The position numbers and the translations under genes are program-made. Shown here one piece after another: positions 1 to 11,207 of a stretch of DNA of 11,207 nucleotides. Source of the DNA: Candidatus Iainarchaeum sp. (lineage in GTDB: Archaea; Iainarchaeota; Iainarchaeia; Iainarchaeales; CSSED10-239); assembly GCA_028693335.1 (NCBI GenBank), contig JAQUVR010000014.1:1-11207 (forward strand). The letters are read 5' to 3'. Numbering within the stretch: the stretch's first letter is position 1; every line of letters starts with the position of its first letter. The notes below the pieces were generated by a model. It did no database searches. It was not told the DNA's origin and worked only from the letters and a program-made list of their open reading frames with translations.

Positions 1-3000
1 CTCTATTATCTTTTAATTTCTTTGATTCATTTAAATAATCTGTCCAAGTAATGAATGGATTTGCTTTTAGATCTAATGAAACAGGATTATTTATAGATTC
101 TGTAATAAAATATGAGAAATCATTATTATTAGATTCTGAAACTAAAGCATATAATGGAATTGGATATGTTGGACTATATTTTAATTCTGCAGTAAATCTA
201 CCTTGGTTATCTATTCCTAATAAATTAATTTCTAATAACTTTCTATTAGATTTTATAGATTGTTCTACATCTGATTTGTCAGTAATTTCAGTATAATTAC
301 TTGCTAGTAAATACATAAATCCTTGTGTTTGAGAATCATTTCTATCATACAAATAAATCAAATCATTGCCAGAGCTAGAAACTGGAATTTTAAGATCATT
401 ATCTAAATAATCAACAGTCACTCCATAATTATCTCTGTGAACTTTTTGAGTACTTCCAACAAGACCCATATTTCCATTTATTGGTAAATAATATAAGAAA
501 TTATTTAATGCATATGGTAATTCTTGTACTTGTGTTAAAGTAATGTGTAATTGAGAAGATCTATCAACATAATAATCAGAATTAATAGAAATTTTATACT
601 TACCTGGTTTTGTTGTTTGTTGTTCTCTAGAATCTAATTTTGTAATTTTTAATTTATTATCATTAATATTTTGATCAGAAAATATATTTCTATTTTCTTC
701 ACCAAGTCCATTGATAAAACCAGTACTAAAATCACGATCAAAAACAATAAAGTCTTTTAATAGGTCTTTAGATATTCCATCAGCCATTAAATAAATATAA
801 TAGTTTTCTGTATTGTTTTTTATTTGATCCAATTTAGAAGAATTTTTTATTAAGTTTATTATGCTTATTAACATCTGAGTAGAATCACAATGATTCTTTG
901 TTAGATTATAATCATAATCTGAATCAACACATTCTGTTTCCCAACTATTTACTGGAGATTGTTGACCTGAGGTTCCCCAATAATAAAGGATTCTTGGAGA
1001 ATTTTCTCTACCAACTCTACAATCTATTTTTTGAGAACAATTTGCAATTATAAAAAAGTCATCATTAGCTTGGGTTATTTGATGACCAGACCCTAAACAA
1101 ACATTACTAGTTAATCCATATTTGTTTAATGTTTGTTCTAAATTCTCAGCATAAACTGTAATCGAAATTATAACATCTCTTTGTGGTGTTGGAGTAATAG
1201 ATGTATTATTTATTTTGTAATTAAATAAAAGTTCTCTTTTAATATCCAAAGACAATAAACCAACAACATCATCACCAACAACATCTAAAATCTCTTGATA
1301 TTCTGCACTATAATTTATTAATATTTGATTTGTTTGTTCTGGATTTATTGTTGATAATTCATTTATTACTGTTTTTTCAATATTAAAATTATTAGATAAA
1401 TAATCTGGAGCTGTAGTGTTTTTTTGCAAATCAATACTTTCTAAGTTTAATGAATAGGTGCTAGTTTTATTTTCAACAGCATACAATTTATTAGAAGATT
1501 CACAAGAATTACTATTACAATTTAAAGAAACATTTGGGTGTAGATTTTCTATTTCTAAAACATTTTCTTCTCTATAAAGATTGGTGTTAATTGTAAAACC
1601 ATGTCTTCCAATAGAAACCCCTAAATGATCAGAAATATTAAAATCTATTGAAATGGTTCCTTCTTTTTTATTTGTAAAATTTTCATTACTAAAACCAACA
1701 GTAAAATAAAATGTTCCTGTTTGACCAGGGTTAATTAAACAAATGCTTGAAATTGGGCTAACATGTTCTTGAACATCAGAACCACTTGCAAAATAAAAAG
1801 CATCATCTATTTTTTTATCATTAGAAAAATTTGCTTGATTTCCTTGAGTTGAACAAGATAAAGAATATTCTACATTTATATTTCCAGATATTTGTGTAGA
1901 TTTTAGAATATCAACACCAGAAATATTTATGGCATTATTTGAATTATTCTTTATACTATAACTAAATGATCTTTGATTAGCAACAGTAGTTATTAATTCC
2001 AAAGTTTTTGTATCTTTATTAAATCCATTTAAATGAGGATTAACGCCAACACCTTCAAGATTTGTATCTAAATTTATTCTTAAAATATTAATTATTGTGT
2101 CAGCATTTAAAAAGAAAATAATTGGATTATTTAAATAATTACCAAGATTTACTTGATTTTCAAACTTTCCTAAAACAAAGTTTTTATTTGGTGAGATGTC
2201 TTTATTTAAAAGAGTATTTGCTTTAATTAAAGTTAAATTACTAGATATATCTCTTGGAATAGGATTATTTTGTGCATTAATATCAATATTCATATTTAAA
2301 ATATTCAAATCATTGTTTGTATATCCATCATTTAATATAAACTGAACAGATCTAAGATTTATTTGTCTGGTTGTATCTTTTTTAATAAAATAATCTTTTT
2401 GTTTTGTACTTGTTTCTTTAATGCCATTAACACTAAAAATTGCATTATTGAAATTTAACTTGTTTGTTGATGTTATTTCTGAACCCAAAGAAGATTCTCC
2501 AAGCTTATTATAAACACCAAGTCCAGAATAAACTCTTTTTTTTATTTTATAAATATTATTTTCTAGACCATAACTACTATCAAACAAGAATCTAAAAGTA
2601 ACATTAGAATCAACAAAAGAAAGTGGAACAATTACAGATCTATTATTTAATACTCCTTGTGAATTTGTTGTGCCTAAATCAATACAAGCATTATCAATAT
2701 CAATTAAACAATATTTTATATTAATATTTTGTAATGGCGCACCTAATTTACTTCTCACTAAAAAATTAACATCATTTTCTCCAGTATATATTCTATTTTG
2801 ATTTGTATTGTCACTTGTTATTATATCAATAAAGAAATCACTTTTACTATATGCTCTAACATTTTGTTTTAATGGACTAGGATTTGTAATTTCTAATATG
2901 TTGGTTGTAATTACTGGCACTTGATTACTATTAGTACTAAAGAAATTATCAACAGAAAATGTGCCGTTTAGATCAAACCAATAACCAATTGTTGCGATTT

Positions 3001-6000
3001 TATTATTAATTGTAAATTGAGTATTATTTACTTGTTGATTTACTAAAGATTGATTCTTTTCTAAAAATTTATAATTTAAATATTTTAAATTATTATTTGT
3101 ATATTGAGATGACCAATTAATATTTCCTGTTGCAGATTCTTGTTTTAGATATAAAAATTTGGTGTTATAATTATAATTATCACCAATATACAAGATATAG
3201 CTATTTCCATTTATCTCTGCTTCAACAGAATTACTATCATAAACTTTTCCAATAAAACTATAATTGCTGGAACTAAAAGGAATCTGCTGATAATTAGATC
3301 TGGCATAGAAAAAACCATTAGGCTTTACTGACCAATTTTGCCAATTTGTAAATGTTGGTGAAAATGAATAGTTACTACTATTGTTTGTAAGTGCTCTATA
3401 ATAGTGTTTATAATTATTTACATTTGTAACACCATTTTGGAACTTAAAATTAATAGTAAAAATAATTATATCTGCATCTGCATTAGTAAAATCAATTTTT
3501 ACCCATTTAGATTTATTGCTTGGACAACCATTTAAGCTTATATCTGTTTGATAATTATTATTAAAATGAGCAAAATTCCAATCTAACAACTCACCAGAAA
3601 ATCTACACCCAAATTGTCTTGTTGTTTGTGGGGCAAATACTGATTTTATATATAAAAAATCATCATTTAATAAAAGATTATTGCCTAATCTAATAAACCC
3701 ATATGAAAGATCTCTATCCTGTTTTGGGGATAAAGTTATTTTATATTTTAATTGATATTCTCTATCAATATTATAATTTCCAACAAAATTTAGTTGATCT
3801 ATTTCTATAGAACCACTTTCATCATAAAGACCTAAAAACTCAATATCTGAATATGGGGTTGCTTGTGGTTGTGTTAAAATAACACTTTTATAAACAACAT
3901 CTCCAGGGATCAATCTAATTAATTCTGTTTGATAGGTCGTATAGTTTACAGCACTTACAATTGCATAAATATCTCGATCACTTGAATTAAAGACATATTC
4001 TTTATTTAGATCACCAGTATTTTCTACATCTCTTGTAACATAGTTTGTAATTTGTGATCCAGTACCATCAAAAAAAGAAACACCATAAGTAGATGTATTT
4101 ACTCTTAGATTTAAAACTTTTGATTGATTTTGTAAATTTACTGTTAAATTTATTGTTTCATTTGAATCTAATAATCTTGTTTCAGAACTACCTTGAATAC
4201 TTTCATAAGGTAAAACAGACATTGCATAATACCTTATATTTGATCTAACCCCTCTAAAAGAAACAACTCCTTGAGAATTTGTAATTAATGGATCTGTTGG
4301 GTATGGTGTGTCTTTATCATCTCCAGATCCATAAAATAAATATACTGTTGCACCATCAATATCTATTCCACTATATTTAACATTAACATTAACGTCTCCA
4401 CTGTTTAACCATGATTGGTATTCTAAATAAATAACTTTATTTACATCTAAAGTATTAATAATTTCTGGATTTGGTGGCAAATATCCATATTGCTCAGTAC
4501 CAGAAACTCTTATTTGATAAATATAATCTGTAAGTACATTAAATTCTGTTCTATTAACATCCGTTCTTGTTGCAACCAATGAAAAAGAATTACTGTCATT
4601 TGATTTTTTCCATAAAGATATATTTCCTTTTACTAGTGACATAGTGTTTTGATCTTTTAAAGTTACATCAATATACCCAAGAGTACCTAATTGACATGTG
4701 CCATCAGGATTAATAATAAGATATGGAGTTAACAAATCATAACTACAATTTAGATCTCCTTGGGTTGTACAAAATTCAGCATATATTGGATTACTACAAT
4801 CAATTTCATTTATTTCTTGTATACTAAACAAAGTGTGATTAACTGAAGTTGTATTATTTAAAACAACTTGGTGAGTTTTTGATTTTGGAATAGTAATATA
4901 TCCTGATTTATCAACAGATAATAAATAATTACCAGGCGTTAAATTAAATATTGTTTTACCATAATAATCTGTCGCAAGAGTAGCAACAGCAATAGATGAT
5001 TCATCAATTGTTGTTGTTGGGTCATTTACTTTAAATACCTTTACAACAGCATCTGTTATTGCAGAACCAGTAGCACCAGAAACTGTTACTTCTAGTTTAC
5101 CAGAATTGCTATTTTTTGAGGATAAATTAATTCTATTTCCTTCAGGAACAACCATGTTGTTAATAGTTTCAAAATCTTGAGAATAAATATCTATTCTCAA
5201 ATCTCCACAGTTAGCTGGTTGATTAACATTTATTTTTCCAGTTATAACTACTTGTTGTTTTGGAGATGGGTCTTTGTTTTCTGCTGAACAATATAATCTC
5301 ACATCTAAATTTTTGCCAATTATTAAAACATTATTAGATAAAAACATTATTTCTCTTTCTTGTTCAGGAGATACGATGTTTTTTACTCCAGTTGTATTGA
5401 TATCTAAAACAATTTTTTCAATTATTTGTTTTTTATTAAAAATTATGTGTTTTGTTTTTGTATTATATGCTTCTTTTGTTGCAGTAACAGCAATACTTTG
5501 TTTTTTATTAAACTTATGATCATTAAAATTTACTTCCCCCCAAGCATCTGTTAACTTACTTTCTAATAATTCTTCATCTACTGTTAGTTTTACAGTTGCG
5601 CCAGTTATCGCAGAGCCAGTCACATCAACAACAGACACCACAATATTTCCTTGACTTGATCCTAAGAATAAATTTACTAGTGTTCCTGATGATATTAAAA
5701 AATATATCAAACCAATCAATGCAAATATAAATATTAAAAACAAAATAAAACTTGGAAACTTTTTATCTATTTTATCAACAAGTTTATTGATTGGAATAAC
5801 CTTATCTATTTTATCCATGAGATCATAATATCTATCTTCAAAAAAGAAATATATTTTTTTAAAGAACAAACCAATTTTATTGAATGGATTTTGCTTTGGT
5901 TTTTTGACAACATTCTTTTTTTGATCTTTCTTTAAATTTTGATTTATTTCTTGTAATAACTTTTCAGCTTCTTTTTTTTGTTTATCATTTTCTTTTTGAT

Positions 6001-6202
6001 TAGTTGTTTTTTCTAAAACAGCGTCATCTTTAAAAGAACAATTATCTTTAACTAATTTGTTTATTACTAAGTCAGCAACATCAGAAGAATAACCATCATT
6101 TAGAATTATTTTCTTTAGATCTTCTCTTGTAAAAGATTTTGTTTTTGATTTTAGAACATTATATATTTGTTCTGCTCTTTTTTCTTTTTCTTGGTTATCC
6201 AT
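1..6202 (-). CDS. Giant membrane-anchored surface protein (adhesin-like). The 3' end is cut by the window edge, with 2067 codons visible.
   Basis: The minus-strand ATG at 6202..6200 is preceded by an in-frame TGA (+ 6233..6235 'tca'). Hand translation of the reverse complement gave 2067 consecutive sense codons down to base 2. The frame was re-verified at bases 2..55 (...FITWTDYLNESKKLKDNR) and 2249..2263 (PIPRD). An open frame of this length is not plausible by chance in DNA this AT-rich. It is missing from the supplied track, presumably because no stop lies inside the window. The protein begins MDNQEKEKRAEQIYNVLKSKTKSFTREDLKK. Confidence 0.9.
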   Translation of the reverse strand, partial: MDNQEKEKRAEQIYNVLKSKTKSFTREDLKKIILNDGYSSDVADLVINKLVKDNCSFKDDAVLEKTTNQKENDKQKKEAEKLLQEINQNLKKDQKKNVVKKPKQNPFNKIGLFFKKIYFFFEDRYYDLMDKIDKVIPINKLVDKIDKKFPSFILFLIFIFALIGLIYFLISSGTLVNLFLGSSQGNIVVSVVDVTGSAITGATVKLTVDEELLESKLTDAWGEVNFNDHKFNKKQSIAVTATKEAYNTKTKHIIFNKKQIIEKIVLDINTTGVKNIVSPEQEREIMFLSNNVLIIGKNLDVRLYCSAENKDPSPKQQVVITGKINVNQPANCGDLRIDIYSQDFETINNMVVPEGNRINLSSKNSNSGKLEVTVSGATGSAITDAVVKVFKVNDPTTTIDESSIAVATLATDYYGKTIFNLTPGNYLLSVDKSGYITIPKSKTHQVVLNNTTSVNHTLFSIQEINEIDCSNPIYAEFCTTQGDLNCSYDLLTPYLIINPDGTCQLGTLGYIDVTLKDQNTMSLVKGNISLWKKSNDSNSFSLVATRTDVNRTEFNVLTDYIYQIRVSGTEQYGYLPPNPEIINTLDVNKVIYLEYQSWLNSGDVNVNVKYSGIDIDGATVYLFYGSGDDKDTPYPTDPLITNSQGVVSFRGVRSNIRYYAMSVLPYESIQGSSETRLLDSNETINLTVNLQNQSKVLNLRVNTSTYGVSFFDGTGSQITNYVTRDVENTGDLNKEYVFNSSDRDIYAIVSAVNYTTYQTELIRLIPGDVVYKSVILTQPQATPYSDIEFLGLYDESGSIEIDQLNFVGNYNIDREYQLKYKITLSPKQDRDLSYGFIRLGNNLLLNDDFLYIKSVFAPQTTRQFGCRFSGELLDWNFAHFNNNYQTDISLNGCPSNKSKWVKIDFTNADADIIIFTINFKFQNGVTNVNNYKHYYRALTNNSSNYSFSPTFTNWQNWSVKPNGFFYARSNYQQIPFSSSNYSFIGKVYDSNSVEAEINGNSYILYIGDNYNYNTKFLYLKQESATGNINWSSQYTNNNLKYLNYKFLEKNQSLVNQQVNNTQFTINNKIATIGYWFDLNGTFSVDNFFSTNSNQVPVITTNILEITNPSPLKQNVRAYSKSDFFIDIITSDNTNQNRIYTGENDVNFLVRSKLGAPLQNINIKYCLIDIDNACIDLGTTNSQGVLNNRSVIVPLSFVDSNVTFRFLFDSSYGLENNIYKIKKRVYSGLGVYNKLGESSLGSEITSTNKLNFNNAIFSVNGIKETSTKQKDYFIKKDTTRQINLRSVQFILNDGYTNNDLNILNMNIDINAQNNPIPRDISSNLTLIKANTLLNKDISPNKNFVLGKFENQVNLGNYLNNPIIFFLNADTIINILRINLDTNLEGVGVNPHLNGFNKDTKTLELITTVANQRSFSYSIKNNSNNAINISGVDILKSTQISGNINVEYSLSCSTQGNQANFSNDKKIDDAFYFASGSDVQEHVSPISSICLINPGQTGTFYFTVGFSNENFTNKKEGTISIDFNISDHLGVSIGRHGFTINTNLYREENVLEIENLHPNVSLNCNSNSCESSNKLYAVENKTSTYSLNLESIDLQKNTTAPDYLSNNFNIEKTVINELSTINPEQTNQILINYSAEYQEILDVVGDDVVGLLSLDIKRELLFNYKINNTSITPTPQRDVIISITVYAENLEQTLNKYGLTSNVCLGSGHQITQANDDFFIIANCSQKIDCRVGRENSPRILYYWGTSGQQSPVNSWETECVDSDYDYNLTKNHCDSTQMLISIINLIKNSSKLDQIKNNTENYYIYLMADGISKDLLKDFIVFDRDFSTGFINGLGEENRNIFSDQNINDNKLKITKLDSREQQTTKPGKYKISINSDYYVDRSSQLHITLTQVQELPYALNNFLYYLPINGNMGLVGSTQKVHRDNYGVTVDYLDNDLKIPVSSSGNDLIYLYDRNDSQTQGFMYLLASNYTEITDKSDVEQSIKSNRKLLEINLLGIDNQGRFTAELKYSPTYPIPLYALVSESNNNDFSYFITESINNPVSLDLKANPFITWTDYLNESKKLKDNR
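3869..5650 (-). other. Array of at least five tandem prealbumin-like / CarboxypepD_reg-like beta-sandwich domains in the giant protein (aa ~185-778). A sixth likely copy lies at aa ~1143-1215 (nt ~2558..2776).
   Basis: The family signature G-x-[IV]-x-V-x-[VD]-x-x-G-x-x-[IL]-x-[GD]-A-x-V-x-[LV] ... T[DN]-x-x-G-x-x-x-F ... Y-x-[LI]-x-V-x-x-x-GY recurs. Copy 1: GNIVVSVVDVTGSAITGATVKLTVDEE..TDAWGEVNF..VTATKEAY. Copy 2: GKLEVTVSGATGSAITDAVVKVFKVND..TDYYGKTIFNLTPGNYLLSVDKSGY. Copy 3: GYIDVTLKDQNTMSLVKGNISLW..YQIRVSGTEQYGY. Copy 4: GDVNVNVKYSGIDIDGATVYLFYG..TNSQGVVSFRGV..YYAMSV. Copy 5: LNLRVNTSTYGVSFFDGTGSQI..IYAIVSAVNYTTY. Recognised by eye, not by HMM. Confidence 0.65.
5687..5758 (-). other. Single transmembrane anchor of the giant protein (aa ~149-172, FPSFILFLIFIFALIGLIYFLISS), predicted N-in/C-out
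   Basis: This is an uninterrupted hydrophobic stretch of about 24 residues. It is preceded by a strongly Lys-rich segment (DKIDKKF) and followed by uncharged SSGTLVNLFLGSSQGN. The positive-inside rule therefore places the first ~148 aa in the cytoplasm. Confidence 0.75.
5763..5815 (-). repeat. Perfect 14-nt direct repeat (+ strand ttatctattttatc at 5763..5776 and 5802..5815), spaced 39 nt in frame. Each copy encodes DKIDK, immediately N-terminal to the TM anchor.
   Basis: Both copies were read directly from the sequence. The protein context is MDKIDKVIPINKLVDKIDKKFPSF. Confidence 0.85.
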
Positions 6203-6228
6203 AATCAATCTATTTTTGTAATAATTTT

Positions 6229-8355
6229 TTATTCAAAGCCATATATTGGAATAAAAGGAAAATCAAATGTTTTTGATGACCCATTATCTAAAGTAATTGT
6301 TCCTTTAATTTTATATTGTTGTCCTGAACAATATGCTTTTGAATCAGTAACTTCACTTAATAAAACATTATATCTTGGAGAAAACAATTTATCTTTTGAT
6401 AAAACATATTCATATACAGCAGGATCTGAAAATCTTTGACTTATTGTTCCAGTAATTTGAGAATTATTTGTATAAACTACATATTCTTCACTTGGCAATA
6501 AGTGATTTGGTTTAAAGATCTGCCCATTTTCTTTAAGATAATATATTTTTAAATCTCCAGCATTAATTGTTCCAGAATTATTAGAATAAATTGTATAGGT
6601 GTCATCCACCCTATTTAGATTAGTTAATTCTAATGCATCACAAATCGGACAAGTAATTGCTGGTCTATTAAAGACAAGTATTCTTGATTTATCATAATCA
6701 AAATCATTTAGAAAGTGATCTGTATTGGCAGAATTAATAGTTAATTGGCCTGTTTGATATTCTAATCTTTTTAATCCAGATGATTTTATATAACAGGCAT
6801 TGATCTCTATTTTTGTATTGTCTATTTGATATGCAGAAATTGTTTTTAACTTCTTTGGAAGATAACTTCCACTTGAAAGATAATTTATTTTAATTTCTCC
6901 TGGACTGAATTGAGTTTCTGGAGAATTTGATGTACAACTTAGATAATCGGCAGTATCTTTTATGGTTTGATTAACTCTACTAATTATTTCTATTCCTCTA
7001 TTATTATTTTCTAAATAATTAATATTAATATCTCCGACAATGCCTGGAACTCCAAAATAACATGGATAAGAAGAACTATAAATCCCCTTTTTGCCAGATA
7101 AGATATTTATTAAAACATTCTTGTGATTATTTATAAAATTTGAAATATTTAAACTTCCAACAGAGCCACCATTACCACCATAATTATAAGATCCATCACT
7201 AACTTTTGCTCCTGCGTTACCGCCATTTCCGGCATTTATAAAGAAAAATAAATTTCCATCTAGTATTAAATCTACAATATTAATATCAAAAATATTTCCA
7301 CCATTGCCACCTAAACTACTATCCCCAGAAGTATCTGAACTACAATTATTTGTGCCTGCAGAACCACCATTACCACCATTACCAGTTAATAAACTTATAT
7401 TAAAAGCAGTTTCTGGTTTAGAATTAATTTTTGAAACATTAAAATCAATGGAACCAGCATCAGCACCGTTACCACCTGGTCTTGGCTCTCCTGGACAAAA
7501 CCAACCACCACCTTCTCTAGAGCCTTTGCCGCCATTGCCACCATTACCTGACTTTAAATTTAATAAAAATAAAGCATCTTCTCTCAAATCAATAAAATTA
7601 ATTTGAATATTTGCATCTCCACCAATTCCGCCATTTCCGCCATCTTTATTCTTTTTTTTCTTACCATCAGATCCTTTACCACCATCTCCTGCTATTAGAT
7701 CTAATCTTAAATTCCCATAATTTTTAATTTGATTACAATCAAATAATGCGGGACCACCTGACACACCTGAATAGGTGGCATCATAGTTATCACCAGGGCT
7801 GCTTGCGTTTTTTGAAATAATGCTTAAATTAAAATCAGAATTTTGATCTATAAATAAATTATTAGCATTCATCTTTATTCCGTGTGCTGGCCAATATGAT
7901 GAATCACTTGACCATGATCTTTCTGCTTCTAAAACATAAAATGCAGATCTATTCTGCATACTTGAATAAATGTCTGCATTAATATCAATTGTTGTTAATC
8001 TAACAACATTATCCAAATTATCAACATTAATAGTTAAATTTGCATTATTTCTAAATTCTATTACATCCATACCAGAAACAACATAATTATCTCTAGATCC
8101 AGAAATATTTATTGTCTTGTCGCTATCAATCACAAAAACAATTTTTTTATTTTCACAGTTTTGTGGTTGTAATTTTAATTCAGAATTATCTATTAAAGAT
8201 ACATTTAATATAACTTCAACATTATCACCAATAATTTGAGAAGATAAAAACGTGCTCAAACTTTGATCTGTAATAGAAACTGTACATCCAAAAATATCTG
8301 CACTAAATATAATTATCAAAAACAAAACTATTATTTTTAATTTTTTATAAATCAT
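6229..8355 (-). CDS. Secreted (possibly lipid-anchored) Gly/Asn-rich repeat protein, 708 aa, predicted beta-solenoid
   Basis: This complete ORF is in the supplied track and ends in TAA. The N-terminus MIYKKLKIIVLFLIIIFSADIFGC has the form of a signal peptide. The central part carries GNGGNGG repeats and many alternating hydrophobic-x-hydrophobic-x-N strands (TINISG, LTINVDN, IQINFIDL, IFDINIVDL). There is no C-terminal hydrophobic tail. Confidence 0.9.
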   Translation of the reverse strand: MIYKKLKIIVLFLIIIFSADIFGCTVSITDQSLSTFLSSQIIGDNVEVILNVSLIDNSELKLQPQNCENKKIVFVIDSDKTINISGSRDNYVVSGMDVIEFRNNANLTINVDNLDNVVRLTTIDINADIYSSMQNRSAFYVLEAERSWSSDSSYWPAHGIKMNANNLFIDQNSDFNLSIISKNASSPGDNYDATYSGVSGGPALFDCNQIKNYGNLRLDLIAGDGGKGSDGKKKKNKDGGNGGIGGDANIQINFIDLREDALFLLNLKSGNGGNGGKGSREGGGWFCPGEPRPGGNGADAGSIDFNVSKINSKPETAFNISLLTGNGGNGGSAGTNNCSSDTSGDSSLGGNGGNIFDINIVDLILDGNLFFFINAGNGGNAGAKVSDGSYNYGGNGGSVGSLNISNFINNHKNVLINILSGKKGIYSSSYPCYFGVPGIVGDININYLENNNRGIEIISRVNQTIKDTADYLSCTSNSPETQFSPGEIKINYLSSGSYLPKKLKTISAYQIDNTKIEINACYIKSSGLKRLEYQTGQLTINSANTDHFLNDFDYDKSRILVFNRPAITCPICDALELTNLNRVDDTYTIYSNNSGTINAGDLKIYYLKENGQIFKPNHLLPSEEYVVYTNNSQITGTISQRFSDPAVYEYVLSKDKLFSPRYNVLLSEVTDSKAYCSGQQYKIKGTITLDNGSSKTFDFPFIPIYGFE
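7021..7770 (-). repeat. Four to five tandem protein repeats of ~44-55 aa (aa ~196-445). Each has two Gly/Asn-rich turns and two short beta-strand-like segments.
   Basis: R1: LIAGDGGKGSDGKKKKNKDGGNGGIGGDANIQINFIDLREDALFLLNL. R2: KSGNGGNGGKGSREGGGWFCPGEPRPGGNGADAGSIDFNVSKINSKPETAFNISL. R3: LTGNGGNGGSAGTNNCSSDTSGDSSLGGNGGNIFDINIVDLILDGNLFFFIN. R4: AGNGGNAGAKVSDGSYNYGGNGGSVGSLNISNFINNHKNVLINI. A degenerate fifth copy follows: LSGKKGIYSSSYPCYFGVPGIVGDININYL. At DNA level, CCATTnCCnCC-type motifs recur at about 7165, 7217, 7297, 7363, 7466, 7523 and 7619. The line 7501..7560 is about 50% G+C. Confidence 0.85.
8284..8355 (-). other. Signal peptide of the 708-aa protein, with a possible lipobox-like I-F-G-C (Cys24)
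   Basis: The region has KK, then a 14-residue hydrophobic core, then SADIFG|C. Phe at position -2 is atypical for a lipobox, so lipidation is only a possibility. Confidence 0.5.
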
Positions 8356-8365
8356 AATTATTCAT

Positions 8366-10156
8366 TTATTTATAAAGTTTATAGGGATAAATTAATCTAA
8401 TTAAATCATTTTCATAAGTCAGATTTGAATCAATCGCATAGATACTGTTGTCGCCTATGTAATTACTATTAATTTCTGTTTGATTATAAATTTTAAATTT
8501 AGAATTATTTATCTTTAATAACAACTGTGCATTAAATTGAAATTTCTTTAAATTGTTATCATACATCAATAATTTTGGATTTGAAAGATTAGGAACAATA
8601 TTATCTAAAGGAAATATTTTACTAATATTACCAAATAAAACAGGATTTGCAAACTTTTCATTAGACATATTTAGATAAGAGGTATAAGAATTTGAAGAAT
8701 AATTTACTGCATTACAAGTGTTTTTATGAAAATTAAATATTTTGTTATTTTCTAAATTAGAAATTCCAACAGCATTAAGATCTAAATTATTAGAGTAATT
8801 GAAAAAAGAATACACATTATAATCTGCATTAGCTGGTTTATTTAAACTTTCAGAACAAGTAGTAAAATAAACAATATTGCCTTTTTTATTATTTAATATC
8901 TTTGGATAATTAATACCTGCAAAATTTTCAAAGAAAAAAGAAGTACTTGCTGTTTGAATAGATGATAAAATATTTATTTCTGATTTTTTTGAATTTATTT
9001 CTATTTCGCCATTATTTATTATAGATTTAAAAATAATAGAGTCATTTAAAATTTGTTCAATTACAAAATATTGAATCTCTGGAAACCACAGATTTGATAT
9101 AGAGCAAGAATCAGAAGTGCCTTCTGCATTATATATATATAAAATATATTCATTTTCTTCTAAATTTGAAAAACTACTATCATCACACAGTTCACAAGGG
9201 CCCCCACAATCTATTCCTTCTTCTCCAAATATTGGATCAAACGCTTCATTTTCACAATGTTCTGGTAAACTCACACTATCTTCTGAAGTTGGAGAATTAG
9301 CAAAATAAAAATATTTTCTAGGACAAGAAACTAATGATGGATAAACATAATTATAATTTAAACCTGATAAAGAAGAATAATTTTGAACAATATAATTTTT
9401 AATATTTGTAAATATATGCAGTTTTGAATTTTGGGAAATATAAATCTCAGTGTTAGAAAAATCAATACTATCTGAACCAATAACTAAAGGGTTTTCCCTA
9501 GCAGTCTTTATACTTGGAAAAAAATAACCTAGTTGATTATTATTATTTGTATAATAATAATGATTTTCTAAAGTTCTCATAAAATTAATATCATTATTAG
9601 ACATAAAATTAATTACAAGCTTGGATCCGTTTCCAGAAATATTTATTTTGGAAATATTACTTTTTAATAATATTCTTGAATGATTGTCTGGCAAAGAAGA
9701 AACAACACCAGCAAACATATTTTTGTAATATCTTAAAAATTGAAATGTCTTACCATTAGATACATCTAATTCTTTAAAATTTAATATTAATCCTTCTTTT
9801 GATAAATTTCTGTTGTCTGGAATTAAAACTGTTGCAGATCTCTCAGATATTAAAAGTCTTATATTGTTTTGAATATTACCAAATTCATCCTTTATATATA
9901 TATTATTAGATCTTAAAATAAAATAATCCGCAACAGAATCTAATTTACAAGTAACTATATCAGAAATTAAATTAATATCTGTAACTACACATGTTGCTGG
10001 ATTGTCTGTCAATTCTATATTATTTAAATTAAATGCATTAATATTAATATAAAGACCATTTATTATCAATTGATCATTAATTTCTAAAGAGAACACAGAA
10101 TTACATAAAACAATTAAAAATAAACTTATGATTACTAATTTTAATGATCTAAACAT
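8366..10156 (-). CDS. Secreted Asn-rich protein of unknown function, 596 aa, with a central four-Cys module
   Basis: This complete ORF is in the supplied track and ends in TAA. The N-terminus MFRSLKLVIISLFLIVLCNSVFS|LEIN has the form of a cleavable signal peptide. A GGAG motif lies 7 nt upstream of the ATG. There is no C-terminal anchor. Confidence 0.9.
   Translation of the reverse strand: MFRSLKLVIISLFLIVLCNSVFSLEINDQLIINGLYININAFNLNNIELTDNPATCVVTDINLISDIVTCKLDSVADYFILRSNNIYIKDEFGNIQNNIRLLISERSATVLIPDNRNLSKEGLILNFKELDVSNGKTFQFLRYYKNMFAGVVSSLPDNHSRILLKSNISKINISGNGSKLVINFMSNNDINFMRTLENHYYYTNNNNQLGYFFPSIKTARENPLVIGSDSIDFSNTEIYISQNSKLHIFTNIKNYIVQNYSSLSGLNYNYVYPSLVSCPRKYFYFANSPTSEDSVSLPEHCENEAFDPIFGEEGIDCGGPCELCDDSSFSNLEENEYILYIYNAEGTSDSCSISNLWFPEIQYFVIEQILNDSIIFKSIINNGEIEINSKKSEINILSSIQTASTSFFFENFAGINYPKILNNKKGNIVYFTTCSESLNKPANADYNVYSFFNYSNNLDLNAVGISNLENNKIFNFHKNTCNAVNYSSNSYTSYLNMSNEKFANPVLFGNISKIFPLDNIVPNLSNPKLLMYDNNLKKFQFNAQLLLKINNSKFKIYNQTEINSNYIGDNSIYAIDSNLTYENDLIRLIYPYKLYK
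9185..9256 (-). other. Compact Cys module C-x15-C-x3-C-x2-C (CENEAFDPIFGEEGIDCGGPCELC, aa 301-324)
   Basis: Read directly from the sequence: GGA GAA GAA GGA ATA GAT TGT GGG GGC CCT TGT GAA CTG TGT. It contains a local G+C spike (gggccccc at 9198..9205) in otherwise AT-rich coding sequence. Confidence 0.8.
10088..10156 (-). other. Signal peptide of the 596-aa protein (aa 1-23)
   Basis: It has Arg/Lys at positions 3 and 5, a hydrophobic core LVIISLFLIVL, and small residues in S-V-F-S before the acidic mature start LEIND. Confidence 0.65.
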
Positions 10157-10163
10157 AAAGTAT

Positions 10164-10167
10164 CTCC
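10164..10167 (-). promoter_or_regulatory. Shine-Dalgarno core GGAG for the 596-aa gene
   Basis: The minus strand reads ...TTTTTGGAGATACTTTATG, with GGAG 7 nt before the ATG at 10156. Confidence 0.55.
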
Positions 10168-10181
10168 AAAAATATATTTAT

Positions 10182-10213
10182 CTATATATATAGTTTTAGA
10201 TATATTTTAAAAA
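10182..10213 (-). promoter_or_regulatory. Candidate promoter with TATA-box-like elements, in the only sizeable intergenic gap
   Basis: The minus strand reads ...AGTAATCTTTTTAAAATATATCTAAAACTATATATATAGATAAATATATTTTTGGAGATACTTTATG. TTTTTAAAATATA (10201..10213) lies 45-57 nt upstream of the ATG. The perfect palindrome CTATATATATAG (10182..10193) lies 26-37 nt upstream. I cannot distinguish an archaeal TATA box from a bacterial -10 element by eye in DNA this AT-rich. Confidence 0.35.
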
Positions 10214-10227
10214 GATTACTTTTTAAT

Positions 10228-10253
10228 AAAAAAAGAAAAGAATTAGAAAAAAA
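10228..10253 (-). terminator. Candidate oligo-T termination signals downstream of the 138-aa gene
   Basis: The minus strand directly after the TAA reads TTATTTTTTTCTAATTCTTTTCTTTTTTTATT, with two T7 runs (A-runs on + at 10247..10253 and 10228..10234). I see no convincing GC-rich hairpin. This would fit archaeal-style oligo-T termination, but it could equally be AT-rich spacer. Confidence 0.3.
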
Positions 10254-10256
10254 TAA

Positions 10257-10673
10257 TTACTTTTCTGCTTCTTCTGTTGTATTATCTTCGGTTGCTTTAC
10301 ATTTACACAAACGACCAATTAGACTATTCTGGCCAACCCATCCACAAAACCAACTACAGATCCCTCTTTGAAAATGAGTGTCAATTTTATCTGGAGTTAT
10401 TCCTTCTTTTTTTAATTGATTTATTATTTCATTTTCAGCATCAATTGCAGAACGAGCATCACTTGATTTTAATATATCTGTATATATCTCTAAATATTCT
10501 TGATTTGTATGTAATGCAACAATATAATTTAACTTCTCATTAGAATCATTTATTACTGCTCTTTTTGCCATACCAGCCCCAATAAAATTACTTAATAAAA
10601 CCCCAAAAATCAACCCAAGTACAAAGAATAAAGCATACATTGGCACTTTTTGACTGTTACCTATTTTTTTCAT
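10257..10673 (-). CDS. Small N-anchored membrane protein, 138 aa, with a helical ectodomain and a C-terminal C-x3-C-x12-C-x-C cluster
   Basis: This complete ORF is in the track and ends in TAA. A strong Shine-Dalgarno motif, AGGAGTGA, lies 9 nt upstream. The TM segment MYALFFVLGLIFGVLLSNFIGAGM (aa 12-35, nt 10569..10640) follows MKKIGNSQK. The Cys cluster GICSWFCGWVGQNSLIGRLCKC is at nt 10299..10358. Confidence 0.8.
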   Translation of the reverse strand: MKKIGNSQKVPMYALFFVLGLIFGVLLSNFIGAGMAKRAVINDSNEKLNYIVALHTNQEYLEIYTDILKSSDARSAIDAENEIINQLKKEGITPDKIDTHFQRGICSWFCGWVGQNSLIGRLCKCKATEDNTTEEAEK

Positions 10674-10682
10674 AGTTTTTAA

Positions 10683-10690
10683 TCACTCCT
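10683..10690 (-). promoter_or_regulatory. Shine-Dalgarno sequence AGGAGTGA for the 138-aa gene
   Basis: The + strand 'tcactcct' at 10683..10690 is AGGAGTGA on the minus strand, 9 nt before the ATG at 10673. It resembles the canonical GGAGGTGA anti-16S-tail motif. Confidence 0.7.
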
Positions 10691-10699
10691 TTTTATTTT

Positions 10700-11207
10700 T
10701 TAATTACCTATAACCCCTAAATCAAAGCCGTCAAAATTTCCAGTATAAATACTATTTTCTGGATATATCTTTGCTGGATTCCAATAATACTCAGATCTTA
10801 GACCATCATCTGAATTGGTTACACAAATATTTCCATTTTCTATATTTTCAAATACAGATCTAATGCTATTAATTCTATTTGTATTTGATAGATCTGGTAT
10901 TGAAATACTTGAAGTCAATGGCTTATTTATGTTTCTTATAAATTTTACTGATGGATCTTGAGTAGATCTAGTAATTAAGGTGTAGTTCTTTGGTGTGCCA
11001 CCTCTAGTATATGGTGTATAAATAATTGTTCTTAAATTTACTTGTCCTCTTCTAGAAACATTCTCCCAATCAACAGCATAACTGTTATATATTTGTTCAT
11101 CTAATCTACTCATTCTGTCTGAGAAATTAACAAACCTTGCTTGAGTTGTGTCTCCTGAAAAGTCTGTATGATCTCCAAACCCTGTCCAAAATAATAAATT
11201 ATTTTGA
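10700..11207 (-). CDS. C-terminal part of a larger protein of unknown function. The 5' end lies beyond the right window edge.
   Basis: The track lists 10700..11113 from an ATG. The same frame stays open for all 31 upstream codons to base 11206 (QNNLLFWTGFGDHTDFSGDTTQARFVNFSDR-MSRLDEQ...). No Shine-Dalgarno-like motif precedes the 11113 ATG, so that Met is probably internal. The stop is TAA at 10700..10702. Confidence 0.75.
   Translation of the reverse strand, partial: QNNLLFWTGFGDHTDFSGDTTQARFVNFSDRMSRLDEQIYNSYAVDWENVSRRGQVNLRTIIYTPYTRGGTPKNYTLITRSTQDPSVKFIRNINKPLTSSISIPDLSNTNRINSIRSVFENIENGNICVTNSDDGLRSEYYWNPAKIYPENSIYTGNFDGFDLGVIGN

Follow-up and report, generated by a model that had tools for sequence, protein, structure and literature searches.

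The window analyzed here is a stretch of 11,207 nucleotides from Candidatus Iainarchaeum sp. (contig JAQUVR010000014.1 of assembly GCA_028693335.1, positions 1 to 11,207), and the gene of interest is the minus-strand coding sequence of a 708-aa protein (6229..8355), referred to as the target protein. Its central region carries a glycine- and asparagine-rich repeat of ~50 residues and is probably the core of a secreted, disulfide-stabilized surface protein of DPANN (Iainarchaeota-type) archaea, in which rungs of beta-strands and polyglycine II (PGII) segments present variable loops. PGII bundles are already known as a structural class; what is new here is a regular scaffold of ~50 residues that is covered by no database family or solved structure.

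A preliminary description of the same DNA had flagged positions 7021 to 7770 as a candidate new glycine/asparagine beta-solenoid. On the minus strand, 7770..7021 corresponds to aa 196-445 of the open reading frame (ORF) 8355..6229, which ends in a stop codon at 6229-6231. The coding sequence is supported by the ORF list, an alignment of homologues and models from AlphaFold2 (AF2), and its minus-strand frame is confirmed, since the homologues (28 found, 25 aligned) share it.

The repeat units

The motif G[ND]GG is found seven times in the target protein, at aa 223, 240, 270, 325, 350, 376 and 394. Four clear units and one degenerate unit, all on the minus strand, are present as previously quoted, and each consists of a Gly motif, a variable loop, a second Gly motif and strands. 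In Unit 1 (aa 222-268, 7552..7692) these are AGDGGKG, the loop SDGKKKKNKD and GGNGGIGG; in Unit 2 (aa 269-324, 7384..7551), SGNGGNGGKG, the loop SREGGGWFCPGEPRP with Cys287, and GGNGADAG; in Unit 3 (aa 325-375, 7231..7383), GNGGNGG, the loop SAGTNNCSSDTSGDSSL with Cys338, and GGNGGN; and in Unit 4 (aa 376-420, 7096..7230), GNGGNAG, the loop AKVSDGSYNY and GGNGGSVG. The degenerate Unit 5 (aa 421-462, 6970..7095) has GKKG, the loop IYSSSYPCYFGVP with Cys432, GIVG, and strands at aa 443-450 and 455-460. It runs ~50 nt past the end coordinate first given for the repeat, and its pattern across the family is 'SGKKG ... G.xG.INI.YL'. The four loop strings quoted in the preliminary description all occur in the protein, as do its N-terminal strings TINISG and LTINVDNLDNVVRLTTIDINADIY.

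Units 1 to 4 resemble one another beyond what their composition explains. Their pairwise Smith-Waterman scores were 49-70, versus 29-37 in composition-preserving shuffles (z 2.8-6.3), and the observed score was reached by 0-1 of 300 shuffles. Unit 5 was similar to Unit 4 only (z 3.8 in the shuffle test). The units follow a leading rung (aa 201-221, 7693..7755, GGPALFDCNQIKNYGNLRLDLI), a strand pair without the full Gly motif that carries a conserved 'GGPA' and, in the shuffle test, did not resemble any of the units. At the DNA level, a tandem repeat search found no repeat of unit length, only a 9-bp GGT/AAT periodicity. The units are thus old at the protein level and not products of recent duplication, and a recent duplication or slippage array was rejected on the same ground.

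Conservation was assessed in a family alignment of 26 sequences, comprising the window protein and 25 homologues over full length. At the Gly positions of the motifs, conservation is complete or at least 90%, and position-specific conservation persists in homologues down to 26-30% identity.

Predicted structure and glycine periodicity

AF2 models were read as per-residue confidence (pLDDT) together with DSSP strings. The full-length model has a pLDDT of 87 and a predicted template modeling score (pTM) of 0.85, with all five models at 84-87. The domain was also re-predicted alone (aa 196-470, from 14 sequences), because Ig-like matches of the C-terminal part had crowded the top-50 list of fold matches to the full model. 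This domain-only model has a pLDDT of 89.8 and a pTM of 0.86. Both runs place the same residues in strand pairs, at aa 203-212/215-221 (the leading rung, pLDDT 96-97), 248-257/262-268, 303-312/317-323, 358-365/368-374, 402-409/414-419 and 443-450/455-460. The Gly motifs are assigned by DSSP as 'other', that is, neither helix nor strand, with a pLDDT of 91-98 in both runs, and the variable loops have a pLDDT of 60-78. In all, 25-35 residues per unit are confidently non-beta.

The structure prediction called for in the preliminary description therefore gave a regular stack with two strands per unit, and because this stack is predicted with confidence, the repeat region is not a disordered linker. 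The idea of a largely disordered, low-complexity Gly/Asn linker, or of a compositional artefact of AT-rich DNA on which AlphaFold is over-confident, draws on the composition of the region (22% Gly and 14% Asn), a genome of 25% GC (25% in the window as well), the shallow alignments, and a word search with the repeat profile that was swamped by Gly-rich candidates (6 matches). It is scarcely credible against the position-specific conservation and above-shuffle unit similarity already described, the agreement of two independent AF2 runs, a largely maintained number of units, the hydrophobic period-2 pattern of the strands, and the even number of loop cysteines in 24 of 26 members.

The periodicity of the sequence changes between the two parts of the unit. 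Across 65 aligned units, the first Gly segment reads G95 x G93 G86 x G95 G76 x G40 and the second G86 G93 x G98 G86 x G40 G80, both of which have a period of 3. The third (x) position of the triplets is typically N, D or K, with N/D accounting for 53-68%. The strand segments of the same units have a period of 2, in which hydrophobic residues (87-100%) alternate with N/S/D.

Among the features expected of the PGII-bundle class are two Gly residues in each triplet for 2-3 turns or more, and confident segments that are neither alpha nor beta. These two are found in the Gly segments, the second as the DSSP 'other' assignment at pLDDT 91-98. At the level of sequence, period-3 Gly with N/D/K at the third position is the signature expected of PGII helices packed on two faces. 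Taken together with a sub-threshold alignment to Obg and weak fold matches to PGII bundles, both detailed below, this periodicity suggests that the Gly segments are PGII. Each rung most likely pairs its two beta-strands with two segments of PGII, giving a hybrid beta/PGII stack. The beta-solenoid first proposed accordingly stands as a confident stack outside any described family, and falls as a pure beta-solenoid, the fold being probably a beta/PGII hybrid. Its Gly motifs, which had been taken for turns, are probably PGII-type segments on the non-beta side or sides of the stack, given their DSSP assignment, their period of 3 and the PGII-bundle matches. In principle, this relates the domain to the known PGII bundles of Obg, phage gp38 and springtail antifreeze proteins.

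Comparison with known families and folds

Scans of Pfam, NCBIfam and PHROGs with the target protein, four neighboring proteins, 26 members of the family and 8 unrelated carriers of the repeat returned no family that covers the repeat. Together with the PDB sequence searches, they assign the units to no described family. Of the two outcomes by which the preliminary description would have been refuted, a disordered linker and such an assignment, neither was thus obtained. The nearest approach was to GTP1_OBG (PF01018), for which sub-threshold matches were obtained in 3 of 26 members (best E 3.5e-4) and none in the target itself. The highest of the listed scores was 18.9 bits, for the member P0013 (E 1.2e-3) over profile positions 5-67 only, where the gathering threshold is 27 bits. 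PDB sequence searches with the target protein, the unit profile and P0013 yielded nothing significant, and one match was to an artificial GGSGGS linker. A profile of the repeat region run against 177,635 PDB sequences matched solely Obg, as 1lnz (E 0.18), 5m04 and 4csu (E to 3.5), and these matches align on the Obg-fold element VKGGDGGNG...GGPAGGDGGKGGDVVFEV.

The Gly-rich domain of Obg is a solved polyproline II (PPII)/PGII bundle (doi 10.1101/2023.11.25.568672). The strand-GGDGGNG-loop-GGxGGxGGxGG-D-V-strand element of the Obg fold (PF01018; 1LNZ, 5M04, 4CSU) aligns residue by residue with one unit of the target protein. Obg itself, however, is cytoplasmic, and its single, non-repetitive domain has six PGII helices on a beta-barrel with a GTPase attached, and neither tandem rungs nor disulfide loops. 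In contrast, the target protein has no GTPase domain, nor does any other family member, and its scores lie below threshold. The resemblance is probably convergent or confined to the level of the motif.

With the full model, Foldseek returned no match at E <= 1e-3 in PDB or BFVD; its long alignments were without exception to beta-helices (HMW1, EtpA, tapirin, SufBD, AidA and a tailspike of the pectate-lyase type), and its short ones to Ig-like or CopC-like sandwiches on the C-terminal part. With the domain-only model, rank 1 was a springtail antifreeze protein of nine PPII helices (7jjv, E 6e-3) and rank 5 the snow-flea antifreeze protein 3bog (TM-score 0.50 on target length, probability 0.63), neither of which is significant. 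The other matches were beta-helices, and none of the list reached E <= 1e-3. PGII bundles make up only a handful of PDB entries. The springtail and snow-flea antifreeze proteins (7JJV, 3BOG, 2PNE) share with the target protein the periodicity of GGx triplets and stabilization by disulfides, but are pure PGII bundles of antiparallel helices with short loops and no beta-strands, and are animal, ice-binding proteins.

A conventional three-sided, right-handed parallel beta-helix of the pectate-lyase or autotransporter type, in which Gly residues would form tight turns, the loops would be T3-like excursions and no PGII would exist, would account for the long Foldseek alignments to HMW1, EtpA, PfbA, RbmB, tailspikes, AlgE4 and pectate lyases. 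It would also account for the strand-turn motif 'I-x-N-x-G-x-L-N-I-x-L' of the units, which is typical of beta-helical adhesins. Such adhesins and tailspikes (HMW1/EtpA of two-partner secretion systems, PfbA, pectate-lyase-like folds) are also extracellular parallel stacks with an N-x-G turn and loop ridges, and their fold matches to the target protein are weak but consistently long. Their rungs, however, are 18-25 aa long with three beta sides, whereas those of the target protein are 45-56 aa long with two beta sides plus Gly segments. DSSP assigns just two strands per unit, not three, and a confident non-beta portion of 25-35 residues, and the Gly residues have a period of 3 rather than 2. 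Profiles of the pectate-lyase-like beta-helix clan (PF13229, PF12708, PF05048 and others) gave no match at E <= 1 in the target or E <= 0.1 in the 26 members, its fold matches have E values of 5e-3 to 2 with TM-scores of at most 0.25, and PGII bundles stand at fold ranks 1 and 5. A plain beta-helix is thus rather unlikely, and the hybrid beta/PGII stack is preferred. Filamentous haemagglutinin and Chlamydia Pmp repeats (PF05594, PF13332, PF02415) likewise had no match in the target or the 26 members.

Other Gly-rich repeats were set aside in the preliminary description, and profile searches bear this out. The RTX/HemolysinCabind family (PF00353) had no match at E <= 1 in the target or E <= 0.1 in the 26 members, and no GGxGxD nonapeptide is present. 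No collagen profile of Pfam matched the target protein, whose GGx pattern spans just 8-9 residues before it is broken by strands and loops. The unit of 45-56 aa with its GxGGxGG motif lies outside both families. A surface that binds metal (Ca2+), ice or mineral, with the outward N/D of the GGx triplets as its functional face by analogy with RTX beta-rolls and springtail antifreeze proteins, would be in keeping with the N/D content of the x positions (53-68%) and with PGII antifreeze proteins as the best fold matches. This proposal is extremely improbable, since the nonapeptide and any HemolysinCabind match are lacking, the x positions also take K, A, S and F, there is no regular Thr/Ala ice-binding face, and it is the loops that carry conserved disulfides and indels, as a functional ridge would.

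The PGRS domains of mycobacterial PE_PGRS proteins are surface-exposed and built of GGA/GGN-type triplets that AlphaFold predicts to form PGII sandwiches (PMC13243192; see also PMC9436101 and PMC10216338). The target protein differs in being archaeal, with a signal peptide and beta stalk at its N-terminus, in having no sequence match to these proteins, and in lacking a near-continuous GGx run. No PE domain (PF00934) was matched in the target or the 26 members, and the unit of ~50 aa with two strands and long loops is, as had been claimed, unlike a PGRS run.

The closest parallel is gp38, the adhesin tip of Salmonella phage S16 and T2/T6-like phages (PDB 6F45), in which Gly-rich motifs form a rigid PGII scaffold, interleaved with the layers of a small beta-solenoid, and variable loops recognize receptors (doi 10.1101/2023.11.25.568672). 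Like gp38, the target protein would have a constant Gly frame, beta layers and displayed variable loops, and its conserved Gly motifs alternate with loops that are variable by entropy and indels. Unlike gp38, which is a compact ten-helix sandwich at a fiber tip, it is a cellular archaeal protein with regular tandem rungs of ~50 aa and two full beta-strands in each, and it has no PHROGs, PDB-sequence, PDB-fold or BFVD match to gp38. By analogy, the target protein would work most like the gp38 tip without being a member of that family.

Variable loops and cysteines

The preliminary description had also suggested a constant scaffold that displays divergent loops, and the family alignment agrees with it. 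Column entropy is lowest in the Gly motifs (1.39 and 1.48 bits), higher in strands (2.04) and highest in loops (2.41). Indels occur mainly in the loops, where 50 of 121 columns are mostly gaps, compared with 38 of 153 in strands, and loop length is 9-17 residues in the target protein and about 1-33 across the family. The contrast in pLDDT between Gly motifs and loops, and the cysteines on neighboring loops, are of a piece with this division. Variability between close relatives is a different matter. The highest entropy holds for loops family-wide, but close homologues are only sometimes more divergent there. For example, P0023 and P0027 differ at 57% of loop positions and 18% elsewhere, P0016 and P0020 at 64% and 37%, and the window protein and P0001 at 8% and 4%.

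An even number of cysteines is found in the five loops of 24 of the 26 members, and these cysteines lie on neighboring loops. The pair of loops involved differs by clade, being L2 and L3 in the clade of the window (Cys287 and Cys338) and L4 and L5 or L1 and L2 elsewhere. Only the window protein and its 94% relative depart from this pattern, each with three loop cysteines plus one scaffold cysteine (Cys207). Even-numbered cysteines on neighboring loops would be expected of successive loops that lie side by side and are disulfide-stapled, which in turn requires stacked rungs and an extracellular location. Read from sequence, the pattern fits aligned, disulfide-stapled loops.

Architecture and proposed mode of action

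The target protein begins with a predicted signal peptide (aa 1-23, 8287..8355, MIYKKLKIIVLFLIIIFSADIFG) that has a basic n-region, a hydrophobic h-region and a small c-region, is modeled as a helix at aa 2-21, and is followed by the invariant Cys24. From these features we infer cleavage of the signal peptide and a disulfide between Cys24 and Cys67. A lipoprotein reading of 'IFGC' as a lipobox was set aside, because Cys24 lies apart from the hydrophobic core in several homologues and co-occurs with the invariant Cys67. The N-terminal stalk (aa 37-200, 7756..8247) consists of short beta rungs (TINISG, LTINVDNLDNVV...), for which DSSP gives a regular series of short strands at aa 37-180. Every long Foldseek alignment leads to a beta-helix (HMW1, EtpA, tapirin, AidA or a tailspike of the pectate-lyase type), each with weak support (E >= 5e-3), in line with the earlier suggestion that the N-terminal segments are further beta-helix rungs.

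The C-terminal region (aa 463-708, 6232..6969) starts with a short capping helix (aa 465-474), after which AF2 predicts one or more beta-sandwich domains (aa 488-708). Short Foldseek matches of ~130 columns to Ig-like or CopC-like sandwiches have probabilities up to 0.98 and E > 0.07. Conserved features of the region include Cys521, Cys569-x-x-Cys572 (CPxCD), Cys676, SGSYLPK and a C-terminal FPFxPLF motif. No membrane anchor was found in the sequence or AF2 model of the target protein.

Outside the repeat, all 26 aligned members share six cysteines: Cys24 (8284-8286), Cys67 (8155-8157), Cys521 (6793-6795), Cys569 (6649-6651), Cys572 (6640-6642) and Cys676 (6328-6330). Within the stalk and the C-terminal domains, they are likely to form either disulfides with a structural role or a metal site. 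The only other invariant residues outside the Gly motifs are a few N, L, S, P, Y, Q and F, and no column of the family alignment is invariant for D, E, H, K or R.

In the proposed arrangement, the signal peptide would be followed by an ordinary stalk of short-rung beta-helix and then by five stacked rungs of ~45-56 residues. Each rung would run from a Gly segment (GxGGxGGxG) through the variable loop to a second Gly segment (GGxGGxxG), strand A, a turn and strand B. Strand A would comprise ~10 residues of the form D-[ILV]-x-[FIL]-x-[IV], the turn would be a tight N-x-G, and strand B would comprise ~7 residues of the form N-h-N-h-N-L. The two strands per rung would build two parallel beta-sheets, and the Gly segments, as PGII helices, would form stacks along successive rungs that close off the solenoid. 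Since all loops exit between the two Gly segments, they would line up as one ridge, with disulfides stapling neighboring loops. This ridge would be the variable, ligand-contacting surface and the Gly/beta scaffold its constant frame. The protein is probably attached to the cell surface by way of its conserved C-terminal part, where the beta-sandwich region and the FPFxPLF tail would dock on either of the membrane-anchored giant proteins whose genes lie beside its own. In that position it would serve for adhesion or recognition, its target being a host cell or a surface polymer. The repeat and its conservation, the prediction of two strands per unit, the period-3 and period-2 patterns, the parity of the cysteines and the synteny are results of the analysis, whereas the PGII conformation, the geometry of the loop ridge, the interaction with a partner and the binding function are all things that we infer.

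Were the target protein instead a beta-helical enzyme that acts on a polymer of the host or of a biofilm (for example a polysaccharide lyase, a hydrolase or an epimerase), the loop ridge would form its substrate groove. DPANN cells depend on host surfaces, the target protein is secreted, and many of its fold neighbors are carbohydrate-active beta-helices, all of which would suit an enzyme. Nevertheless, an enzyme is very unlikely, as the family has no invariant acidic, basic or His residue (its invariant columns being Gly, Cys, N, L, S, P, Y, Q and F), no CAZy-type match was found in Pfam or NCBIfam, and the loops that would line the groove are the least conserved part. A signal peptide, the lack of an anchor, the FPFxPLF end and the absence of invariant catalytic-type residues together favor a non-enzymatic recognition or adhesion subunit. 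Judging from sequence and gene context, the target protein is most likely a loop-display binding module within a conserved cluster of giant surface proteins.

Several points weigh against the hybrid loop-display scaffold. The AF2 alignments are shallow, with 14-26 sequences, and no match to a PGII protein, by sequence or by fold, reaches significance (E 6e-3 to 3.5; 18.9 bits versus a cutoff of 27). Neither gp38 (6F45) nor Obg was retrieved by Foldseek. Known PGII bundles are mostly antiparallel, whereas same-layer neighbors in the target protein would be parallel. With respect to the loops, several close pairs differ no more there than at other positions, which means that diversifying selection is not a general rule, and the parity of the cysteines is not phylogenetically independent.

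Distribution of the family and of the unit

A word-indexed search found 28 homologues, all metagenomic and a few labelled 'archaeon', among which there was no Pfam domain. An exhaustive profile search of 1.84 billion representatives recovered 161 proteins at E <= 1e-3. Matches below 1e-30 number 43, most of them over nearly the full length (about 45 full-length clusters). Most family members have 4-5 detected units and a minority have 3 or fewer, some of the latter being fragments. A scan of GTDB with a close subgroup as query located members in Candidatus Forterrea multitransposorum, whose genome is complete (CP045477.1), and in metagenome-assembled genomes of Ca. Iainarchaeum, and the named genomes with members are all Iainarchaeota (DPANN archaea).

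About 100 further matches to the family profile cover the repeat region only. In these other proteins the unit takes the form strand-[SA]G[ND]GG[ND]GG-loop-GG[ND]GG[ND]GG-x-I-strand, and a hidden Markov model of the unit finds units in 69 of the repeat carriers. The carriers range in size from 300 to 3,266 aa, and their other domains are typical extracellular modules. For example, P0068 has Listeria-Bacteroides repeats and BspA-type leucine-rich repeats (LRR), P0069 a MACPF domain, and P0096 CARDB and TSP3 domains. The repeat is unannotated in these three and in the other scanned carriers (Pfam/NCBIfam), and the protein-cluster names of 10 carriers were not informative. As the unit occurs in many extracellular proteins, it is a dispersed, undescribed module and not peculiar to the target gene. 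Its fusion to MACPF in P0069 hints at a role in directing a pore-forming module to its target.

Folded Gly-rich PGII assemblies are rare in the PDB, and the reviews consulted list only Obg, acetophenone carboxylase, ALK/LTK, springtail antifreeze proteins and a few phage tail-fiber or tail-spike domains (doi 10.1101/2023.11.25.568672; PMC13243192). Such assemblies are sought as design scaffolds. If the proposed structure is correct, the unit would add a regular tandem-repeat version with rungs that mix beta-strands and PGII and tolerate long, variable, disulfide-stapled loops. It would then offer a natural, extensible scaffold for loop display, and a sequence signature with which to annotate 'hypothetical' extracellular regions of many metagenomic proteins.

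Genomic context

All credible genes of the window are on the minus strand. The target gene is preceded by a gene for a 596-aa secreted protein (8366..10156) and followed by that of a giant protein, giant B (1..6202; >2067 aa), which runs off the left edge. Gaps of 10 nt (8356-8365) and 26 nt (6203-6228, from the target stop to the giant B start) separate the three genes. The short gaps and the shared strand suggest that they form one transcription unit. Further upstream are the gene of a 138-aa membrane protein (10257..10673) and the C-terminal end of a second giant protein, giant A (10700..11206), whose ORF enters at the right window edge and shares 37% identity with the C-terminus of a 2466-aa gene upstream of the homologue in locus L001.

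Giant B has a Lys-rich N-terminal tail and a single N-terminal transmembrane segment, after which there are weak Ig-like matches (CarboxypepD_reg/MG4). It is 34% identical over ~1480 aa to the product of a 2147-aa gene that follows the Ca. Forterrea homologue, and the synteny of target and giant B recurs in loci L001, L006 and L007. In Ca. Forterrea, Ca. Iainarchaeum and related contigs, the conserved order is a ~730-970-aa protein, giant A, a small secreted protein, the target protein, giant B and two ~120-aa membrane proteins. Sizes across the cluster are ~2,430-2,505 aa for giant A and ~2,110-2,150 aa for giant B, the latter with one N-terminal transmembrane segment and CarboxypepD_reg-type Ig-like domains. 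The two consecutive genes after giant B in L001, L006 and L007 encode ~115-123 aa each (at about 18.6-19.6 kb in each locus), and those of L006 translate as multi-pass membrane proteins. As predicted from these sequences, this is a conserved, unannotated surface cluster of 6-7 genes in Iainarchaeota. Literature searches returned no description of the target family or of the gene cluster.

In L001, a 663-kb contig, the cluster lies near a histidyl-tRNA synthetase gene. A PHROGs scan of the cluster proteins in the window gave no matches, and for this reason the cluster looks chromosomal rather than viral. It offers a concrete candidate for experimental work on DPANN archaea, whose machinery of cell-cell contact is largely uncharacterized. 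Going further, it is a tentative possibility that the unit represents an unrecognized fold class, in which beta-sheets and parallel stacked PGII helices share one rung spacing, and that it is widely used as a stapled loop-display scaffold, including in MACPF, BspA-type LRR, Listeria-Bacteroides-repeat and CARDB proteins. In Iainarchaeota it would then serve as the recognition subunit of an apparatus of two membrane-anchored proteins of ~2,100-2,500 residues that attaches DPANN cells to their partners.

Two other interpretations of the DNA were discarded. An alternative genetic code, suggested by the lack of complete ORFs in 300-6200, is not needed, as a single giant ORF on the minus strand fills this region and continues past the edge of the window. 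A plus-strand ORF at 7304-7606 (100 aa, Pro-rich, PPLPPLP...) is the antisense of GGT/GGC Gly codons and not a gene.

The 596-aa secreted protein ends 10 nt before the start of the target gene and matched no family in Pfam, NCBIfam or PHROGs. It occurs between giant A and the target protein only in the clade of the window, with the same gene order in loci L002 and L003 (602 aa in L003), and other Iainarchaeota have only a ~120-aa secreted protein in its place. The 596-aa protein also carries the Cys motif 'EEGIDCGGPCELCD'.

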